Origin: Planctomycetota bacterium
Lineage (GTDB): Bacteria; Planctomycetota; Phycisphaerae; WQYP01
Assembly (NCBI GenBank): GCA_021851715.1
Contig: JAJZCR010000005.1
Coordinates: 2,329-66,328, forward strand
Reading direction: 5' to 3'
DNA length: 64,000 nucleotides
Part shown: positions 1,353 through 52,700 of the stretch, piece by piece
Position numbering within the stretch: the stretch's first letter is position 1
Layout of the letters: every line of letters starts with the position of its first letter
Notes under the pieces: model-generated
Told to the model about the DNA's origin: nothing
What the model saw: only the letters and a program-made list of their open reading frames with translations
Databases searched by the model: none
Program-made: the position numbers and the translations under genes

Positions 1353-1617
1353 TGCCGCAGTTCTCCATGACAACAGACCCGTCCGCCAATTCAGTCCGGC
1401 GACCACGGCGTTGTGACGCGAATCAGGGATTTTTGGGGTGCAGCCAGATCAGGTGGAATCAGCCCCGACCCGCAACCGTCAATTCCCGGCCATCAATACC
1501 TCAACACAGATTGCTTTAAATCCGCATCGCACGCATCGACACTCGCCAGGAGTCATTAGCCCTGAGTTCTCAGGGCGGTTACGGGAGGACTCCATCTCCT
1601 TAACTTGTCCTTGAAAT

Positions 1618-1646
1618 ACTCTAGAAGGTGGACCAGGATTTGTCAA
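1618..1646 (-). promoter_or_regulatory. Sigma-70-like promoter candidate for the hydrogenase operon (TTGACA-N17-TAGAGT)
   Basis: The minus strand reads TTGACA (1646-1641), a 17-nt spacer, then TAGAGT (1623-1618). This would give a leader of about 255 nt before the ATG at 1352. Confidence 0.35.
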
Positions 1647-2305
1647 ATTGGCGTTTCGTTTTTGTCCGAAATGACAACAAAGGCCTTGCGGGAAGTTTTC
1701 CCTCAGGTCAAAGCGATCCCATCCCCAGCCTTCCGCGACTACGGCTGTGCCCTCAAGGTTCAGGTCATCGGGTGTTCACTTCAGCGATGTTGCGGGTATT
1801 GCTCCACCCTGATTTGGCAACGGCGATCAATTTCGGTTGGCGGCGAGAACTGCGCCTGAGGCAGCAGACTGCAGCAGGCTGGACAGACCTTCGATGGCGC
1901 CGCACGGAAATGGTGGCCGGGCGGCAAGTCGCGGTTGAAGTTGCAACGTCAGCCCCCGGCACCATGCGTAAGGCAAATGCCGAATCGGTAAGCGTTATTC
2001 GCAAAGAGGCTGACATGAACCGTTACTCCGGTCTTTCCAGCAAAATTTGTACACCGATCCCTGGCCTCTAAACAGAGCCTCCATGCCGGGATAGTGCATT
2101 TGTCGGACGATTGCCGCCCCGGCAATAAAAGAATCTCTACACGTCCGATTAAATCGAGATTGTGGCGCTATTGGCCGAGGGCCACATTCGTGACCGGACG
2201 GGCTGCGGGCGGCCGCCCGCCGTTGGCTTGAGCTAACCGGCGTGGCGGAATCTCGGGTATAATTGATACATAAGCAAAGGGACAGTTTCAGGCGGATGTG
2301 CAACG

Positions 2306-5300
2306 ATGGCCCGCAATTCCAATCCAGCAACGACCGGGCAGATACCCGATGATTTGCGTGAATCGCTGCAAGGCGTGGCGAAGCGCCATCGCACGGTGCG
2401 TAGCAGCCTGGCGGCGTTGCGGGTGCTCTTCGTGAGTTTGGCGGTCGGCTTGGTTGCGGTTCTCCTGCTGGGGGAATTTACGCAAATGCCCTTGACGCTG
2501 CGCTGGGTGCTGGCCCTGCTGGTGTGGGTGGTGCCGGCGGGGTTATGTCTGCATGTGCTTATTCCAGCGCTGCGGCGGGTGAACATGCAGGTGGCTGCAG
2601 ATACCATGGATGCGATAAGGCCGCAGTCTCATGAGCTTTTTCTGAGTGCCGTAGAATTTGCTCAAAAACGACAGGACCCATTCGTGGGATCGCCGCAACT
2701 GGTCAACCACGTTATTAACCGGGCGGCCGATGATGCGCACGCTGTGGATCCTGGGCAAGCGGTTTCCGCGGATAAATTGATACGCTGGGCCTTTCTCTGT
2801 GCCCCGCTGGTGCTGATCTGGGCCATCCTTTGGCCACTGATGCCGCAAACATTAACCTTGGGCGTGCAAAGGACGGTGTTCCCCTGGATGGTGGCTACCG
2901 CACCGCCAATGACTGGGCCGCGGCATTCGATCAAGGTGGAACAAGGGCCGGCCATTACTTTCTTCGAGAAGCGGTATATTTTTCCAGCGTATACCGGGCT
3001 ACCGGAGAAAACTGTTCGTGGCCACAACGGAGCGATCCACGGGCTGTCCGGTTCACGTGTCCAGGTGATTATCCATACCACCGAGCCGTTGGCAGTAGGC
3101 AGCCGGCTGGTGGTAAACCCAAGTGGAGGTCAACCGGACACGCTGCCGCTGACGCGTTATGGTCCGCTGGCGTATGCGGCGAAGCTGATGTTGACGCACA
3201 ACGCCACTTATGCGGCAGTGCTGGTGAATCAACTTGGCGTCCAAATGGCCGGGAAGCAGGTGTGGCCGGTGACGGTAGATGCGGTTCCGCCGCCGACGAT
3301 CCATATTCTCACCCCCGCTTTAACCGTGCGGGTAAGGCCTGATGATTTGGTGCCGGTGCAATTCATCGCCACCGACATCTATGGACTTTCGGCCATCCGG
3401 GCTTTGCTCTGGACAGGTAATTCTGCCGTACGAACCGTGAATATCGCCCTGCCGGGCACGCCAGGCAAGGTGATTCAAAGCAATTGGACAATTTCGGTGC
3501 CACAGCAACTGCAAGCTGCCGGCCGGACCGATGCCCACACGATTTATTATAAACTTGAGGCCTTGGATTGCGCCCAGCCACAGGCCCATATTGCCATGAC
3601 CGCCCGGCATGAGCTAATCGTGGATACCCACTTGCAGCACAGCTATCAAACCCGGCAGGATAACAAATTATGGATGTCGTTGCGGCAAGCAATTTTGCAG
3701 GCGTTAATCGCGGTAAAAGCGGGCCGTGCCCAGGCCCGGGCTTTAGTCCGCTGGCCCGCATACATGGCGGTTGATCCGTTACGCAAGGCGGCGGTGGCCG
3801 GTGTGGCGGTGCGAGTGGTGCGGACGGGTCGAACGCTGGCAAACCAGGCCAAGACCATGTTGGAGACTGATTTTGGTGCGGTAGCAGCGCGTGCTATTGG
3901 CATTGCCCACGGTCCGATGCACGTGGCCGCCAATGATCTGGCGCGAACCGGGCTGGCGGCGGATCAAGCCGGGGGCACCCGCATGCCTCGATTGGCCCGG
4001 GCCAGCACGGTGGCACTCCAGCGGACACAAGCGTCACTGCGACGGCTGCTGCACGCCCTGGACCAAGCCAAGACTCGTGAGGCTTTGAAAAATTTACTAA
4101 CCCGGTTGGCCCGGCGACAGCGTTCCATCGCCCAGAGGCTATTGGACGGCAGTTCCCCTCACCATGCTTACCACGACCAGCAGGCCCTGGCCCAACAATT
4201 GCAGCAACTGCTGCGGCAACATCCCTCACTGCAGAATCCCGTCGCGCAGCAAATGACGGGACAAATCAACCAGTTAGCCAAAAAAATAGCTTCCATTGCC
4301 GCCCGGCAGGCGGCAGAGGATATGGATTTACATCCCAATCTTCTTCGACAAGCCCAGCAGACTGCGTTGGGGCATCTGGCCAACCAGCAGCAACTTTTGA
4401 ACCGACAAATAACACGTTTCAACCAACGCTATAAACCGGCGATTGCCACAGCGGCAGCGCAGCCGGTTACCGCAGCGATGATGCAAACCGTAAGTCACGC
4501 TCTGAACAGCCCCGGCGATGCCGCCGTGGCCCGGGAAGGGCGCAACAACATCGTGAAAACCCTGCGGTCTATGGCCAGGCAATTAGACCGGTATGCCAGT
4601 CAGGCGGATACGCCTGCGGCCAGGCAACAGTCCCGTCAAGTGGAGCATAATCAAGTAACCGCGGATCAACTTTCGCGACAGGTTCAGGCCGCCGCAGCCA
4701 CTCTACAACAAGGAGAATCAACAAACGCTCTGCATCGCGCTGTGCGGGCAGCGGATGCCATTGGGCGGCAGGTGCGTAACATGCTCAATGAAAACCCTGT
4801 GGACCAGGAGCGGGCTGATTTGCTGCAAGCCCGGGCCGATGCCAGGCATGCTGTAGAACAAACCATGCATGGATCCGGCAATGCCGCGGAGAGTTTATTA
4901 AAACAGGCTTATCACCAATTGGCGAAGGCCATACGGGAACAGGTAGCGCAGCTCGAATCGCAGCGGAGTTTGGCTCAGCAGGCAACCGCGGCAGCCATGC
5001 AGGCCCGAACCCTGGCTAGTCGGCAGGCCGCCCTGGCCACACAGACGGCCAAGGCCCATAAAACACCGACTCCGCAGGCGATCTCAAGCGCCCAGCACCA
5101 AACCGCCAATGCCATTGCAGAGGCCATTGCCCGGGAACGGAAATTACAACAGGAGGCCATGGCCGGTGCCCCGAATGTGGCCCAGCACCTGAAAGCAGCT
5201 CTGACCCAAATGCAGAGAGCCAACACGGCACAGGCTCAGGCAGCCGCGGACCAATCCGCCCATGATCAGGCAGGCTCGCAGGCCAATCAAGGCCGGGCCT

Positions 5301-12797: not shown

Positions 12798-13391
12798 ATG
12801 CGTAACTTTGTGACGATACCCGCCGAAATCGAAATAAAATTAAGGGTGGATGATTTTACCGCCGTCCGGGCAGCATTGGTGTCCGCGGGTGCCCAGGCCC
12901 TGGGAACAGATCGCGAACTTAACATATTTTTTGATCGGCCGGATAAAAGTCTGCGCGCCGACGGTGCGGGCTTACGGCTTCGCTGGCTATGGCACAATCA
13001 GGCCGTGGAACCGCAGGCACTGTTGACTTGGAAGGGACAGGCGGTATCCAGCGCCATGCACCATCGCCCTTCTCTGGATATCAGCGTTGCCCCACCTCAG
13101 CAGATGGCCGCCCTGCTGGAGATGCTGGGATTTGCACAAACGTTGGCCTTTGAAAAACTTCGCGAATCCTGGCGGCTGGAGACGAGCCGCATTGAACTGG
13201 ATCAATTACCCGAACTGGGCAACTTTGTCGAAATTGAAGGGCCGACGGAAGCCGCGGTCCTGGCAATGCAAAAGCGATTAGACTTGTTCGGCCGGCCGAT
13301 AGAGACACACACGTATATCGCCCTGGTGGAACGGCATTTGCACGACCACCCTGCCGACGATAACACCCTGCGATTCAAGCGCGGCGGATGA
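12798..13391 (+). CDS. CYTH-domain protein (class IV adenylate cyclase / triphosphate tunnel metalloenzyme family)
   Basis: N-terminal ExExK signature 'AEIEIKLRV', followed by 'LRADGAGLRLRW' and 'FVEIEGP'. Confidence 0.75.
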   Translation: MRNFVTIPAEIEIKLRVDDFTAVRAALVSAGAQALGTDRELNIFFDRPDKSLRADGAGLRLRWLWHNQAVEPQALLTWKGQAVSSAMHHRPSLDISVAPPQQMAALLEMLGFAQTLAFEKLRESWRLETSRIELDQLPELGNFVEIEGPTEAAVLAMQKRLDLFGRPIETHTYIALVERHLHDHPADDNTLRFKRGG

Positions 13392-13438
13392 AGCGCCGAA
13401 CCTCGCCGCCGGATAATAGAAGACGAAAACACGGATTA

Positions 13439-13546
13439 GAGCGGTTCTCAAAAGTCTTGTTGCAGGTGTGGTATATATTCGTACATCAGGAACAACACAT
13501 CACCTTAAAACATGCGACATTATTGATGAGAACTGCTCTAAACACG
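13439..13546 (+). repeat. Copy A of a hairpin-forming intergenic element of about 107 nt (partner at 48057-48163, inverted)
   Basis: The reverse complement of 13439-13546 matches 48057-48163 with 5 mismatches in about 107 nt. It has terminal inverted arms GAGCGGTTCTCA / TGAGAACTGCTC and is AT-richer than its flanks. It sits 48 nt after the CYTH stop and overlaps the last codons of the convergent CBS gene. Confidence 0.85.
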
Positions 13547-13975
13547 TCCGTACACGTATTCATGCAGATAGCGGATGGTAATCTCCTGTTCGCTGGTGTG
13601 CTGAGCGTTCAGGTCACCGATGGAGACCATCCCCAGCAATCCCCCATCCGGGTCGCATACCGGCAGGTGCCGGACGCGATGGGTTTTCATAATGGTGCTG
13701 GCTTCCTGCAGCGAGGTATCCAGATCGCAAAAGATCACGTCGCGGGTCATCACCTCTCCGACAGTGGTCTGATGAGGATTTTTATCCGCGGCGACCACAC
13801 GCTGGAGGATGTCACGCTCGGTGAGAATGCCGACAATATGCTCGGACTCCATCACCAGCAACGCCCCGATTTTGTAACGGTTCATCCGCTGGGTGGCGGC
13901 GAGGACACTGTCCGTGGGCATAACGGAATGCACGATGCGCGGCTTACCCGCAAGGATGTGAGAAAGTGTGGACAT
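13538..13975 (-). CDS. CBS-pair domain protein
   Basis: 145 aa with two CBS motifs ('IGALLVMESEHIVGILTERDIL' and 'VRHLPVCDPDGGLLGMVSIGDL'). Confidence 0.85.
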   Translation of the reverse strand: MSTLSHILAGKPRIVHSVMPTDSVLAATQRMNRYKIGALLVMESEHIVGILTERDILQRVVAADKNPHQTTVGEVMTRDVIFCDLDTSLQEASTIMKTHRVRHLPVCDPDGGLLGMVSIGDLNAQHTSEQEITIRYLHEYVYGRV

Positions 13976-14127
13976 GGCTGTACTCCTTCAAAGAGGCCAC
14001 TAAAATTTCCGGCATCAGAATTGGATAGCGACGCCAATGTTCTTGAGTGTAGACTTTTATAACAGATATGCAACATTGTGAATAAAATAACGAATAAGGC
14101 GGCCCTTGCTTATGCTCGCTGCTCTCA

Positions 14128-47494: not shown

Positions 47495-47980
47495 TTACTT
47501 GCCACTCTTGGGACCAAACGTGTGGCGCAGGTAATTAATGACTTGCCAGCGCTGTTTGCGACTCAGCGAATCTTGAAAACTGGGCATGGGGCTTTTTCCG
47601 CGGGTAATCTTCCAAAAAATAGCCCCGTCCGTCTGTTTCCAGAATTTGGCGGTGGTCAGATTCGCCGGGTGCGGACTTAAAAACGCACCCGTCGGACCGT
47701 CGCCTTTGGCGTTGGCACCATGGCAGGCTACGCAATTCTGCGTAAAGATGGATTCGCCGGCGCTGATGGATTGGGCGTTTATCGGAATCGGGTTCTTATG
47801 TTTGGATGCGGAATGTGGAGCATTCCAATGTGAAAACATTCCCGGCTTTGGAAACATGGTGGATTTGGGCATGGCTCCCAGTGTCAGCATGGCTGCACAA
47901 GCCGCTGAGATCAGAGGTACCTTGGAAGACTTGAAAAACATAGGCGCAATCTCCATTAAAATCTTGACCTCACGGTCCAA
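47495..47980 (-). CDS. Class I c-type monohaem cytochrome
   Basis: Signal/anchor sequence, a single 'CVACHG' haem-binding motif and a distal Met in 'GKSPMPSF'. Confidence 0.75.
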   Translation of the reverse strand: MDREVKILMEIAPMFFKSSKVPLISAACAAMLTLGAMPKSTMFPKPGMFSHWNAPHSASKHKNPIPINAQSISAGESIFTQNCVACHGANAKGDGPTGAFLSPHPANLTTAKFWKQTDGAIFWKITRGKSPMPSFQDSLSRKQRWQVINYLRHTFGPKSGK

Positions 47981-48056
47981 ACCGACGCCGCAGACCGATA
48001 TAGTACAGCCAGATGGGTGATAGAATCAAGTAACCGGACCTGCTGGTCCGATTTTA

Positions 48057-48163
48057 GTGGTTAGAGCAGTTCTCATAAATAATGTCGCATGTTTTAAGGT
48101 GATGTGTTGTTCCTTATGTACGAATATATACCACACATGCGACAAGACTTTTGAGAACCGCTC
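48057..48163 (-). repeat. Copy B of the hairpin-forming element of about 107 nt (partner at 13439-13546)
   Basis: 102 of 107 positions are identical to the reverse complement of copy A. It lies 148 nt downstream of the outer-membrane-factor stop and upstream of the cytochrome c gene. It contains a perfect 9-bp internal helix GTCGCATGT/ACATGCGAC. Confidence 0.85.
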
Positions 48164-48310
48164 CAGGCCTTTCGATAGCTCGGTCGGTGGTGGCTGTTTT
48201 GTTGACTTGGTTTACAGCCACCCATCCAAGAAACAGCCATATTTCGAGCTAGCCCTGCAGTGTATCGACTTTCAATATCTCACCCTCACCATGGCCCGGT
48301 GAAATCCGCG

Positions 48311-49732
48311 TCACCGGCCAGGGACACGTAGTTCGCCGTGGACAGTTTTAACCGGAGGCCGCTCCATCGGCTCGGCAATGATGGCGTCGATATCCGCAAT
48401 CCGTTGATCCAGATCGGTTTGCAGAGCGACCATGGTCTGCTGGATTTGCAGCATGGTCTGGTCCAAACGAAGCTGCTGGCCGATGGAAGCCCGGCCTTGT
48501 TGGTAAGCCGCACGTGTCAGAGCTGCCATCATCCGCCGGCGAGGCAGAATATGGCAGCGAAAAAGTATTAATTGGCGGTGATCATTGCGCATAGCAATCA
48601 GATCGATGAGGAGTCGGGCGGCCAGAATGTTATATTGACCGCGCCAGGCGGCGCGGGTGGCGTGCAACTGGTCTCGTGCCTGCCGGATGGAGGCATTGAT
48701 GGCTTGATAGCGCAAAGCCGGAACTATCAGCGCCCCGGTGAAATTTTGTACGGTGCCATCCAGCGACGTCGACAGGCCGATGTCGAAATTGGGGATATAT
48801 TGCATTGCCGCACGGCGAATGCTGATACGGCCCGCCGCAGCCAGCTTACGCAGCCCCTGGAGCTTCGGATTCCGATTCACCGCCGTAGCCAATAGCTGAT
48901 TGTTGCTCACGGCAGGCACCGAGAGTTCGGCAATGGCTTGCGGAGGCTTCAGCGGCATATCGGCCGGTCGGCCCAAAAGGGCGTTAAGGGCAGCCAATTG
49001 CCGGGGCAATTGGTGGGTCAGCGCCACAATTCGGCTGCGCAGCAAATCAAGGCGATTTTGTCCGGAGAGCCATTGTTGCGGCCTGACGGTGCCGGTTTTT
49101 ATTCCGGCATGATTCAGGGCAATCGCACTTTGCAGCAGGGATTGCTGTCGCTTGGCCAGTTGCAGAATTACCGCAGTTCGCGCGTAGTCATACCAGGCAT
49201 CGAGCACGTTGCGGCGAAGTGCAAAGCGACGGGCCTGATAATTCCATTCGGCGGCCACAGCCCGCAACAGTGCGATCCTGGCATCGGCGGATATCTTGGA
49301 CGGCCATTGGATATCCGCACTGCCCATATTACCCGCTCCGACAGTGGTGTTGGACAAGGAAGCCGCCCCGCGGCTTAACAAGGTACCCGCATTAAGCATC
49401 AGGGTGGTGGTTTGAGTTCCGGCCTGCGGAATGTTTTCAATGGCAACGCGCCACTGCCAATAGGATTGCTGCACCTGCGGGCTATTGCGCAGCGCGTAAT
49501 GCACCAACTGGCGAGGTGTAGCGTTGAATGGCAAGGGCGGCGGATGGCGCTGGGCGAAAGGCTTGGCAAAGGCCTTCCCGGCGACTTGAGCTTGCCGGCG
49601 CAGTTTGCCTTCACCCGCCGGATGCACCGTACAGCCTGCCAGGCCAGTGAGGGCCGCCACCACCATGATCGACAGCCATGGACAGTATCCGTGCCAGTGA
49701 CGCATGACCTTGGGCCGGGGTGAAATCAACAT
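48311..49732 (-). CDS. Outer membrane efflux lipoprotein (TolC/CusC/CzcC family)
   Basis: Lipobox 'LTGLAGC' and two OEP repeats. An ATG overlaps the RND stop by one base (TGATG), so I start it at 49732 (alternative ATG at 49705). Confidence 0.8.
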   Translation of the reverse strand: MLISPRPKVMRHWHGYCPWLSIMVVAALTGLAGCTVHPAGEGKLRRQAQVAGKAFAKPFAQRHPPPLPFNATPRQLVHYALRNSPQVQQSYWQWRVAIENIPQAGTQTTTLMLNAGTLLSRGAASLSNTTVGAGNMGSADIQWPSKISADARIALLRAVAAEWNYQARRFALRRNVLDAWYDYARTAVILQLAKRQQSLLQSAIALNHAGIKTGTVRPQQWLSGQNRLDLLRSRIVALTHQLPRQLAALNALLGRPADMPLKPPQAIAELSVPAVSNNQLLATAVNRNPKLQGLRKLAAAGRISIRRAAMQYIPNFDIGLSTSLDGTVQNFTGALIVPALRYQAINASIRQARDQLHATRAAWRGQYNILAARLLIDLIAMRNDHRQLILFRCHILPRRRMMAALTRAAYQQGRASIGQQLRLDQTMLQIQQTMVALQTDLDQRIADIDAIIAEPMERPPVKTVHGELRVPGR

Positions 49733-52700
49733 CATATATGGGATCCTGTTTCGAAATTGGATTCTGGTGGAACCATGGTCGAAGCGCTGCATTGTTTTTG
49801 AAGCTGCCACCCCATCACGATGTAATACAAGGCCGGCAGCACCAGCAATTCCAGAATAAACGCGGTACCCAGGCCCCCTATCATGGGTGCCGCCAGGCGG
49901 CGCATTACCGAGCCACCCGCACCTGTGGCCCACAGCAACGGCGTCAAGCCGATGAGCGCGGCACAGGCGGTCATGGTCTGCGGGCGGATGCGCCGCACGG
50001 CCCCGGTATAAACGGCGTCAAAGAGATCCTGTTGGCTTTCAAGTCGGCCATCGTTCCGCGCCTGCTGCAAGCTCACATCCAGATACAGCACCAGCACCAT
50101 TCCCATTTCCACCGTTAATCCGCACAGGGCGATAATGCCCACCCAGACCGCCACCGACAGATGATAGTGCAGGAAATACAAGGTCCATGTCGCTCCCACC
50201 AGGCCGAAAGGAATGGATAAAAGCACGCCCAGCACGCGGCCCACGCTGCCGGTGGATACCAGCAGCAGAATGAAAATAATCAATAAAACCATGGGCACCA
50301 CCAGTTCAAGGCGGGCATTGGCCTCCTGAATCTGTTTGTACAAGCCGACCCACTGGTACGTGTAACCTGCAGGCAGCGTGATCCGGCGGCGGATGGCAAC
50401 GTTGGCCCGATTCACGTAACCGACGGTGTTGCCGGTGGTGGTGGTGATATTGACGTAATTGACCGTCATGGCGTTTTGGCTGTCGATCTCGGGTGGCCCG
50501 GCGGCATAACGGATCTGGGCGATCATACCCAGCGTGATCACACTGCCGTTGGGCGTGACGATGGGAAGGTCCTGAAGTTCCGTCGCGCTGCCGCGAAACT
50601 TGCGAAAATAGCGGATATTGATAGGCAGCCGCTGCAAACCCAGCACCATGGTGCTCACCGGATCGCCGCCGACGGCCATGGTGATGATGCGTTGAACGGC
50701 GGCCTGGGTCAGACCGTAGCGCATGGCCTGCAAGCGGTGAATATGGATATCCAGGTAATAACCTCCCAGTGTCTGGTTGGCGATCGCGCTGCCGGTACCA
50801 TCAACTCCTTGAAGCACGCGGGCGATTTCGTTGGACACCCGGCCAAGCACCTTGAGATTTTCGCCAAAGATGCGCATGCCCAGCAGGGTCTTGCTGCCGG
50901 TGTTGGCCATGTTGACGCGATTGGCGATGGGCATGGTCCAATAGGCGGCAAAGCCGGGAATTTTCAAAGCCTCGTTGAGACCCTCATGATGCTTGTTCCG
51001 GGCATCGGTCCATCTATGGAGAAGCTGCTGCAGAGAAAGCCGCGCATGCCCCGGCCAGAAAGTGCGCCGCAGCGGCCATGAAAGCCAGTGCGGCCAGTTG
51101 TCATAAAACCGCGCCACCGGAACCATGGGCCATTGGGTCCGGCGTTTAAGCCGGATGATGGTATCAATCATGTTCAGCGGCGCGGAATCGGTGGCGCTAT
51201 CCGCCCGGCCGATCTGCCCCCAGACGCTTTTCACCTCTGGAAAACTTTTGATAATTTTGTCGCTTTGCTCCAGCACGTAACCCGCCTCGCCGACACTTAT
51301 ACCAGGATACGTGGTTGGCATATATTCCAGATCGCCTTCATATAGCGGCGGCGTAAATTGCGTACCCAGGCGGCTCCATGGCCAGTAAATGGAAACGCAC
51401 AGCGCCGCAGCTACCAAAAGCAGCAGCCACCGCCAGACCATGGCCGCGTTAAAGACCGGACGAAATCCCCGCTGCAGCCACTGGCTTACCAGATTGTGCT
51501 GTTCGTGGATAATCTTCTGCGGCATCACCAGCATCACCGCCAGAACCACCCAGCCCAGCACCAGCCACCATTGGTAGCGTGCTAATTCGTCACTGTGACT
51601 GGCGGCGTTATACAAGCCGATCGCCGGCACGATGATGATCGCCAGCGCCGCGGCCCCCTGCATCCACCAGGGCCACTGCCCTGGGAACAACCGTGGTGTA
51701 ACAAAATAAATCATCAAAATGGGGACGACCGTGATGGAAAGCACCGCCGCGGCACCGATGGCAAACGTCTTGGTCAGAGCCAGCGGGCCAAACATTTTGC
51801 CGCTTTCGCCCGGTAAAATAAAGATCGGTAGAAAACTGATGGTGATAATCAGCAGGCTGAAAAACAATGCGGGACCCACTTCTCCGGCCGCCTCCAGCAT
51901 GATCATGGTCCGGGGACGCGGCGGGCGGCCTTTTGCCACCTGCTGCTCGTCACGGTTGATATGCTGGTGGGCGTTTTCAATCATCACGATGGAGCTGTCC
52001 ACCACCACGCCGATGGCGATGGCAATACCGCTGAGGCTCATGATATTGGCGCTCACGCCCAGCCAATAGAGGATCGCCAAGCTGATGATCATGCTGGCGG
52101 GAATTACGACAATGGCCACCAGGCCGCTGCGTCCGTGCCATAAAAACAGCAGGCACACGGCCGCCACCACAATCATTTCCTCCAGCAGCGTATCGGAAAG
52201 CGTATGAATGGAACGGTTAATGAGGTTGTCGCGGTCGTAACCGGTCTTGAAAAATACGCCAGGAGGCAGACTCGTGGACATGGCGGCGATTTTCTTTTTG
52301 ACCCGTTGCACCACCCGATACGTGTCTGCGCCGGAACGCACCACCACAATGCCGCCGACGACCTGCCCGCGACCGTTCCAATCCAATATTCCCTGGCGCT
52401 GCCCGCCGGCAATCTGCACCGTGGCCACGTCATGCAACGGAATCGGCGTGCCATCAGGGGCTTGCCCCACGGGTACGTTTTCCAGTTGCTTGATATTCCG
52501 CAAATATCCCCGGCTGCGGACCAGATACTGCAATTCGCTTATGTCCACGGTTGCGCCGCCCACATCGTTATTGGACTTCTGAATTGCGCCGGCCACCTGC
52601 CCCACACCCAGGTGGTACGCCCGGAGCCGGTTCGGATTCACCACCACCTGATATTCCTCGGAAAAGCCACCGATCCCCGCCACTTCCGCCACTCCCCGTA

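Follow-up and report, generated by a model that had tools for sequence, protein, structure and literature searches.

Two inverted copies of a 100-bp AT-rich hairpin element, probably a MITE derived from an IS630-family insertion sequence, in 64 kb of DNA from an uncultured bacterium

Two copies of a short AT-rich sequence, able to fold into a long hairpin, lie 34.5 kb apart and in inverted orientation in the stretch of DNA analysed here (64 kb, hereafter the window). The initial annotation saw in them, at a length of about 107 nt, either a transcribed structured element, such as a 3'-UTR stabiliser, a terminator or a small RNA, or a MITE- or REP-like repeat family. The question raised by the locus is whether this sequence is an RNA element kept by the cell or a piece of mobile DNA.

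Extent and insertion sites of the element

Positions 13439-13546 (+) were realigned with the reverse complement of 48057-48163, and the reported match was recovered: no gaps and 5 substitutions. In local blastn searches with the 100-bp core, copies A and B were identical at 96 of 100 positions (E = 3e-44). Three sub-patterns of 21-30 nt, with at most 3 mismatches allowed in each, matched only copies A and B in the window, where shuffled sequences give an expectation of 0, and blastn-short found no more diverged copies there. The GC content of the element is 39-41%, compared to 56.8% for the window, in agreement with its description as AT-rich. Its length had to be revised, as the mobile unit is exactly 100 bp (Table 1). 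Within these 100 bp the two copies differ by 4 substitutions (element positions 23, 27, 49, and 87), and the fifth substitution of the earlier alignment falls in the flank, outside the element. The extra 8 nt of the annotated interval (TAAACACG in copy A, TAACCAC in copy B) consist of a TA target duplication and flanking DNA. The sequence AACACG belongs to the host, because it is present at the empty site of relatives (see below), and its likeness to the flank of copy B is the common TA plus chance.

The intervals between the stop codons of the upstream genes and the element are 47 nt (CYTH gene, copy A) and 147 nt (outer-membrane efflux protein gene, copy B), which places both copies in sense orientation after these stops, as had been described. 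One frame of the element is open and encodes a 34-aa peptide. Two open reading frames that overlap the element, 13388-14062 and 48057-48302, are present in the ORF list; they had been called spurious, and a MITE at these positions explains them.

Table 1. Features of the window at and around the two copies. L numbers denote loci outside the window.
Feature	Position	Strand	Remarks
Probable MITE, copy A, 100 bp (GAGCGGTTCTCA...TGAGAACTGCTC)	13439..13538	+	96/100 identical to copy B; relatives L014-L021 are without the element in the CYTH-CBS spacer, with exact break points
TA target-site duplication of copy A, left	13437..13438	.	Empty site in L014, L015, and L016
TA duplication of copy A, right	13539..13540	.	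Forms, with base 13538, the TAG stop of the CBS gene on the minus strand
Left terminal inverted repeat, copy A	13439..13466	+	First 22 nt as at the left end of the IS in L004; 2 substitutions further in
Right terminal inverted repeat, copy A (ACATGCGACATTATTGATGAGAACTGCTC)	13510..13538	+	Aligns with the right ends of IS relatives (..CATAGGACATGATTTTCGAGAAGTGCTC)
Probable MITE, copy B, 100 bp, inverted relative to copy A	48064..48163	-	First 28 nt identical to the left ends of the complete L004 IS and the truncated L001 IS
Dinucleotide at the left end of copy B	48164..48165	-	Reads TG in element orientation; either a TA duplication in which one base has changed or a non-canonical site
TA at the right end of copy B	48062..48063	-	Read from the sequence
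CYTH-domain gene, upstream flank of copy A	12798..13391	+	PF01928, 73 bits
CBS-pair gene, convergent with the CYTH gene	13538..13975	-	Insertion into its stop codon, with a stop restored
Outer-membrane efflux protein gene, upstream flank of copy B	48311..49933	-	PF02321
Cytochrome c gene, downstream of copy B	47495..47941	-	Conserved upstream region begins about 35 nt past the element

The CBS protein of the window is present unchanged on 9 public contigs, and every retrieved contig that spans the spacer between the CYTH and CBS genes carries the element. One contig of the same strain (L012, a Logan contig of SRR13203278) ends at its position 3464, inside copy A, an assembly break of the kind caused by a multi-copy repeat. 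Relatives with CYTH proteins 89, 84, and 78% identical to that of the window share the gene order (ketoacyl synthases, FIST, and CYTH, with CBS and APH convergent), and their CYTH-CBS spacers measure 41-42 nt versus 146 nt in the window. The empty site in the relatives reads GGAT-TA-AACACG, and the occupied site GGAT-TA-[100 bp]-TA-AACACG. With longer flanks, L014 reads ...GAAACCACGGAT-TA-AACACGTCCGTACACG... and the window reads ...GAAAACACGGAT-TA-[GAGCGG...100 bp...CTGCTC]-TA-AACACGTCCGTACACG... Copy A is a presence/absence polymorphism with a precise empty site when compared to L014-L021. Precise empty sites together with a duplicated TA are a hallmark of the IS630/Tc1-mariner group. Duplication of a TA target has been described for bacterial elements of the IS630 group (PMC2229807).

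Copy A went into the TA of a TAA codon, the stop of the CBS gene. This gene ends in GTT TAA in the relatives and in GTT TAG in the window, where the third base of the stop is the G at the element's terminus, read on the strand of the gene, and the protein has 145 aa in the window and in all relatives. The insertion was neutral for the CBS protein because it recreated a stop codon, and the case is an example of TA-targeting elements landing on stop codons.

Copy B lies after the stop codon of an efflux operon, ahead of the region upstream of a cytochrome c gene. It is flanked by TG on the left and TA on the right, and we read these dinucleotides as a probable TA duplication in which one base has changed. 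The exact cytochrome c protein of the window had no database record. The same gene order without the element was found in L026, the one relative retrieved for this site, where the cytochrome c is 86% identical and the spacer is too diverged to align across the insertion point.

Insertion sequences with matching ends and further copies

The first 20 nt of the element were scanned against 185,579 species-representative genomes and yielded a single match, in a metagenome-assembled genome titled Planctomycetota bacterium (L001), the only locus with this label. The copies of the source genome itself are absent from that collection, or differ within the 20-mer. L001 contains the first 28 nt of the element and, about 60 nt further on, an ORF whose N-terminus has the helix-turn-helix typical of IS630-type transposases (Pfam HTH_32 and related); this insertion sequence (IS) is truncated after approximately 150 codons. 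Metagenomes were scanned with a degenerate 22-mer compatible with either end of the element, and 8 loci were identified, two of which were clearly relevant: L004, with a complete IS, and L007, with a MITE. Five others are probably fortuitous: L003, L005, and L009, which represent one AT-rich sequence, L006, and L008. A scan of viral contigs gave 2 matches, both inside coding sequence and due to chance, and blastn of the IS against plasmids gave no match. At the last of the 8 metagenome loci, L002, a TA-flanked terminus (GAGCGGTTCTCAAAAATAATGTAAGCGG, positions 953-1035) is related to the same IS clade; 82 nt beyond its start could be seen, and it belongs to an IS or to another MITE.

The IS in L004 occupies positions 448-1593 (1146 bp) with TA on either side, and is bounded by imperfect terminal inverted repeats of 35 nt. 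At the left end, GAGCGGTTCTCAAAAGTCTTGTCGCATG, it is the same as copy B over 28/28 nt. The single ORF of 349 aa matched the NCBIfam model NF033545, 'IS630 family transposase', at 229 bits (cutoff 100), and also contains Pfam DDE_3 and four HTH domains. Homologues of this transposase numbered 1221 at E <= 1e-40, nearly all on contigs of approximately 1.1-2 kb. Short contigs of about the size of an IS are the usual signature of a collapsed multi-copy repeat. On the same L004 contig, a second transposase gene (Pfam DDE_Tnp_1; 1465-3297, minus strand) abuts the IS630-family IS, and its ORF runs through the right inverted repeat of the latter; one IS seems to have inserted into or beside another.

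Four more complete IS insertions (1141-1143 bp) were obtained from three relatives, with transposases 76-79% identical to that of L004. The IS in L031 (79%) comes from an ENA sample whose accession number is near that of the host, and its ends differ from those of the MITE. L032 and L034 contain the same IS at two sites, L035 contains it again on a contig barely longer than the IS, and L036/L037 represent a complete IS at one site. All 5 distinct complete insertions, which comprise 4 IS variants, start with GAGC[A/G]GTTC, end with GCTC, and have TA on both sides.

The left approximately 50 nt of the MITE align with the left ends of these ISs, with a subterminal ATTCG motif near position 40-45 among the aligned bases, and the right approximately 35 nt align with their right ends, for example ..CATGCGACATTATTTATGAGAACTGCTC versus ..CATAGGACATGATTTTCGAGAAGTGCTC in L032. 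The agreement of the right arm with the recovered right ends was at best about 24/31 nt, as judged by eye in the right-end alignment, and none of the recovered ISs has a right end that closely matches it. Both arms of the MITE carry GTCGCATG, the left-end form in the ISs of L004, L001, L032, and L034; the right ends of the ISs have GTCCTATG around the transposase stop codon, at the place where the MITE arms have GTCGCATG. No full-length IS or transposase gene was found within the 64-kb window by tblastn with the L004 transposase (best E = 0.05).

The 34-aa peptide from the open frame of the element was used as a phmmer query against 1.84 billion representatives. One match, a spurious 63-aa ORF (P0162) that reads through the element, led to a further copy, L038; two others were irrelevant tandem-repeat translations. 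The L038 copy (positions 841-940) is exactly 100 bp, is flanked by TA on both sides, and comes from an ENA sample whose accession belongs to the series that also contains the contigs of the host. The L007 copy (positions 2779-2879) is 101 bp, and its flanks, CA and TT, we read as the likely decayed duplication of an older copy. Overall, at least four copies of the MITE were found (A, B, L007, and L038), two of them in the 64 kb of the window and two at unrelated loci on metagenome contigs of different organisms, and the TA duplication is intact in copies A and L038. L007 and L038 are 72% identical to each other, and each is 76-82% identical to the window copies. When all four are aligned the first 18 nt are conserved, the last approximately 33 nt are almost invariant, and the middle is diverged; the left arm varies after nt 18. 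The L038 copy precedes, by about 30 nt, a gene whose product has a prepilin-type N-terminal methylation motif. The L007 copy, in opposite orientation, ends 2 nt before the ATG of a gene for a GH39 glycosidase with a signal peptide. The immediate 5' leader of this GH39 gene is now MITE sequence (L007, 2779-2884), and automatic ORF calling could lengthen the gene by 26 codons of MITE sequence.

Mobile DNA or functional RNA

We conclude, with a probability of about 0.93, that the element is a non-coding MITE derived from an IS630-family insertion sequence, because it consists of the two ends of an IS of the L004 clade without the transposase gene. Four features of an IS630 MITE are present: a small non-coding unit, terminal repeats homologous to those of an IS, a TA duplication, and a precise empty site. 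The MITE would have kept approximately 50 nt of the left end and approximately 35 nt of the right end of its parent and lost the transposase gene. A DDE transposase encoded at another locus of the genome, by a full-length member of the same clade, would bind both terminal inverted repeats, excise the 100-bp element, and insert it at a TA dinucleotide, which would be duplicated. Binding, excision, and insertion at a duplicated TA is the known working of the IS630/Tc1-mariner group. We infer an autonomous partner IS in the source genome.

Of the two interpretations in the initial annotation, the MITE alternative stands and the transcribed structured RNA does not. Folding gave one long imperfect hairpin for copy A on the plus strand (MFE -35.5 kcal/mol, z -5.1) and for copy B on the minus strand (MFE -41.8 kcal/mol, z -8.5), with less stable folds for the opposite strands (z -2.9 and -5.6). 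The helices described before, an outer one of 12 bp with one G-U pair and an inner one of 9-10 bp, were found again. Such a hairpin is expected because terminal inverted repeats pair automatically. The search of Rfam returned no match over the element, either at the gathering threshold or at E <= 10. Neither copy is a rho-independent terminator, as no U-tract follows the stem (the sequence after it is UAAACACGUCC in copy A and UAACCACUAAAAUC in copy B), and scans for promoters and terminators found none in the element and, near copy B, only separate small hairpins outside it. One of these, a G+C-rich hairpin (CGGACC-AGCA-GGTCCG) at 48032-48053 on the minus strand, lies just past copy B, on the side of the cytochrome c gene and ahead of its conserved upstream region; it was flagged as terminator-like by the scan, is outside the MITE, and is not conserved in L026. 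Elsewhere in the window, positions 1540-1608 (minus strand) match the fluoride riboswitch (crcB motif, Rfam RF01734) at 49.8 bits (gathering score 34, E = 8.5e-11). Pfam searches with large ORFs of the window identified only housekeeping and TPR proteins.

Base pairing was compared in the four copies. The hairpin has 26 pairs; 16 are invariant, 4 are changed on one side to a wobble or Watson-Crick pair, and 6 are each unpaired in one copy, so that compensatory changes amount to 0/26 pairs, a count of low power with four sequences. The variation damages the helix and sits on one arm, a pattern that would fit conserved protein-binding ends and not conserved pairing. The G-U pair of the outer helix had been taken as a sign of RNA function. 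A transition that interrupts an inverted repeat will always appear as G-U when one strand is folded and as A-C when the other is, so this detail is worth at most 1 bit. In L038 that position is a G-C pair and the adjacent one a mismatch.

We weighed four other readings against these data. A functional structured RNA, a 3'-UTR stabiliser, terminator, or small RNA that is kept by the cell and was recruited at several genes, would account for z values of -5 to -8.5 on the strand that is sense to the upstream genes, with weaker folding on the other, and for the location of both window copies after a stop codon in that orientation; moreover, an influence on transcript stability has been reported for co-transcribed ERIC, Correia, and BOX elements (PMC3049150, PMC2229807). 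Nevertheless we consider this reading very unlikely. Apart from the empty Rfam search, the missing U-tract, the empty terminator scan at copy A, and the lack of compensatory changes with pairs broken from one arm, close relatives are without the element in the same spacer and their genes are otherwise intact. The location downstream of genes is a poor sign of RNA function: copy A is downstream of a gene either way, because the CYTH and CBS genes are convergent, and the L038 and L007 copies are 5' of genes, the latter in opposite orientation. Finally, the stems are most probably the transposase-recognition repeats of an IS; the ends of the element are the terminal inverted repeats of IS630-family ISs, and a match of this kind is what the initial annotation had itself named as speaking against an RNA. 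The element is selfish DNA of a common kind, not a dedicated RNA element.

REPs are G+C-rich palindromes of 20-40 nt without a target duplication. The element shares with extragenic palindromes of the REP/BIME type, which are moved by a RAYT (an IS200/IS605-like tyrosine transposase), that it is intergenic, palindromic, and repeated, and that copy A lies between convergent genes; it is, however, 100 bp long, A+T-rich, and flanked by TA, and its ends match those of IS630-family (DDE) elements, which leaves the REP-like alternative a practically negligible probability. That each copy is instead the remnant, in situ, of a full-length IS that lost its interior independently, so that no 100-bp lineage ever transposed, is suggested by the truncated IS of the same clade in L001. 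Copies A and B have the same junction and are 96% identical over all 100 bp, however, and L038 and L007, at 100-101 bp, agree with them in length and in their end segments. We regard such remnants as highly improbable, because four separate deletions would not all have the same break points. It is also improbable, although less so, that the MITE has been co-opted. In this case a very stable 3'-UTR hairpin, common to the convergent CYTH and CBS transcripts and, at copy B, located after the efflux operon and ahead of the cytochrome c gene's upstream region, might stabilise or insulate transcripts, or the inverted copies 34.5 kb apart might serve as substrates of a reversible chromosomal inversion; no observation requires either. 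Effects on transcripts, by a 3' hairpin or by insulation, are possible as side effects of the MITE, by analogy with RUP, BOX, ERIC, and Correia elements, for which they have been discussed (PMC3049150, PMC2229807).

Related elements and significance

By its features, the closest analogue of the MITE would be RUP of Streptococcus pneumoniae. In the passages on RUP in PMC2229807 and PMC3049150 (citing Oggioni & Claverys 1999), this element is described as 107 bp long, with inverted repeats like those of IS630-Spn1 and a TA target. According to the same passages (PMC2229807, PMC3049150) it is proposed to be mobilised by IS630-Spn1, 108 copies are reported, and it has stops in all six frames. Both elements are non-coding, measure approximately 100 bp, have IS630-like terminal repeats, insert at TA, are mostly intergenic and frequent between convergent genes, and form a tight hairpin from their paired repeats. 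They differ in the host, which here is an unrelated uncultured bacterium with IS relatives in Planctomycetota-labelled DNA, in the parental IS clade, which here is 1.14 kb with termini GAGCRGTTC...GCTC, and in coding potential, as the element in the window has one open frame whereas RUP has stops in six.

ISNpu3 belongs to the IS630 family. The Nezha MITE of cyanobacteria, in the sections of PMC3049150 and PMC3184786 that treat it, is proposed to be mobilised by ISNpu3-like elements; from this description it is likewise a small non-autonomous element tied to a full-length IS by the similarity of terminal repeats, in another phylum and with another IS. Stowaway MITEs and Tc1-mariner elements share the IS630-Tc1-mariner superfamily, the TA duplication, and miniaturisation by internal deletion (PMC3814204), but they are eukaryotic and usually form larger families, whereas the parent here is a bacterial IS630-type element. 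Correia/NEMIS and ERIC are also small TA-flanked elements with inverted repeats, whose transcripts form long hairpins and can alter the fate of mRNA (PMC2229807). Their autonomous partners are unknown or of another kind, and the IHF site, promoters, and RNase III processing documented for them have no counterpart among the motifs found here.

The MITE is an ordinary element that holds little biological surprise and settles no open biological question. Its value is in annotation, where it explains two AT-rich islands, two spurious ORFs, the change from TAA to TAG at the end of the CBS gene, and the point at which the public contig L012 breaks off. Judged from the sequences recovered, the IS and the MITE probably constitute a new, unnamed IS630-type pair, defined by the termini GAGCRGTTC...GCTC, by insertion at TA, and by a parent of 1.14 kb that has a derivative of 100 bp. 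This pair appears to be widespread in environmental bacteria, to judge from the 1221 transposase homologues at E <= 1e-40, and it could be masked in genome scans.
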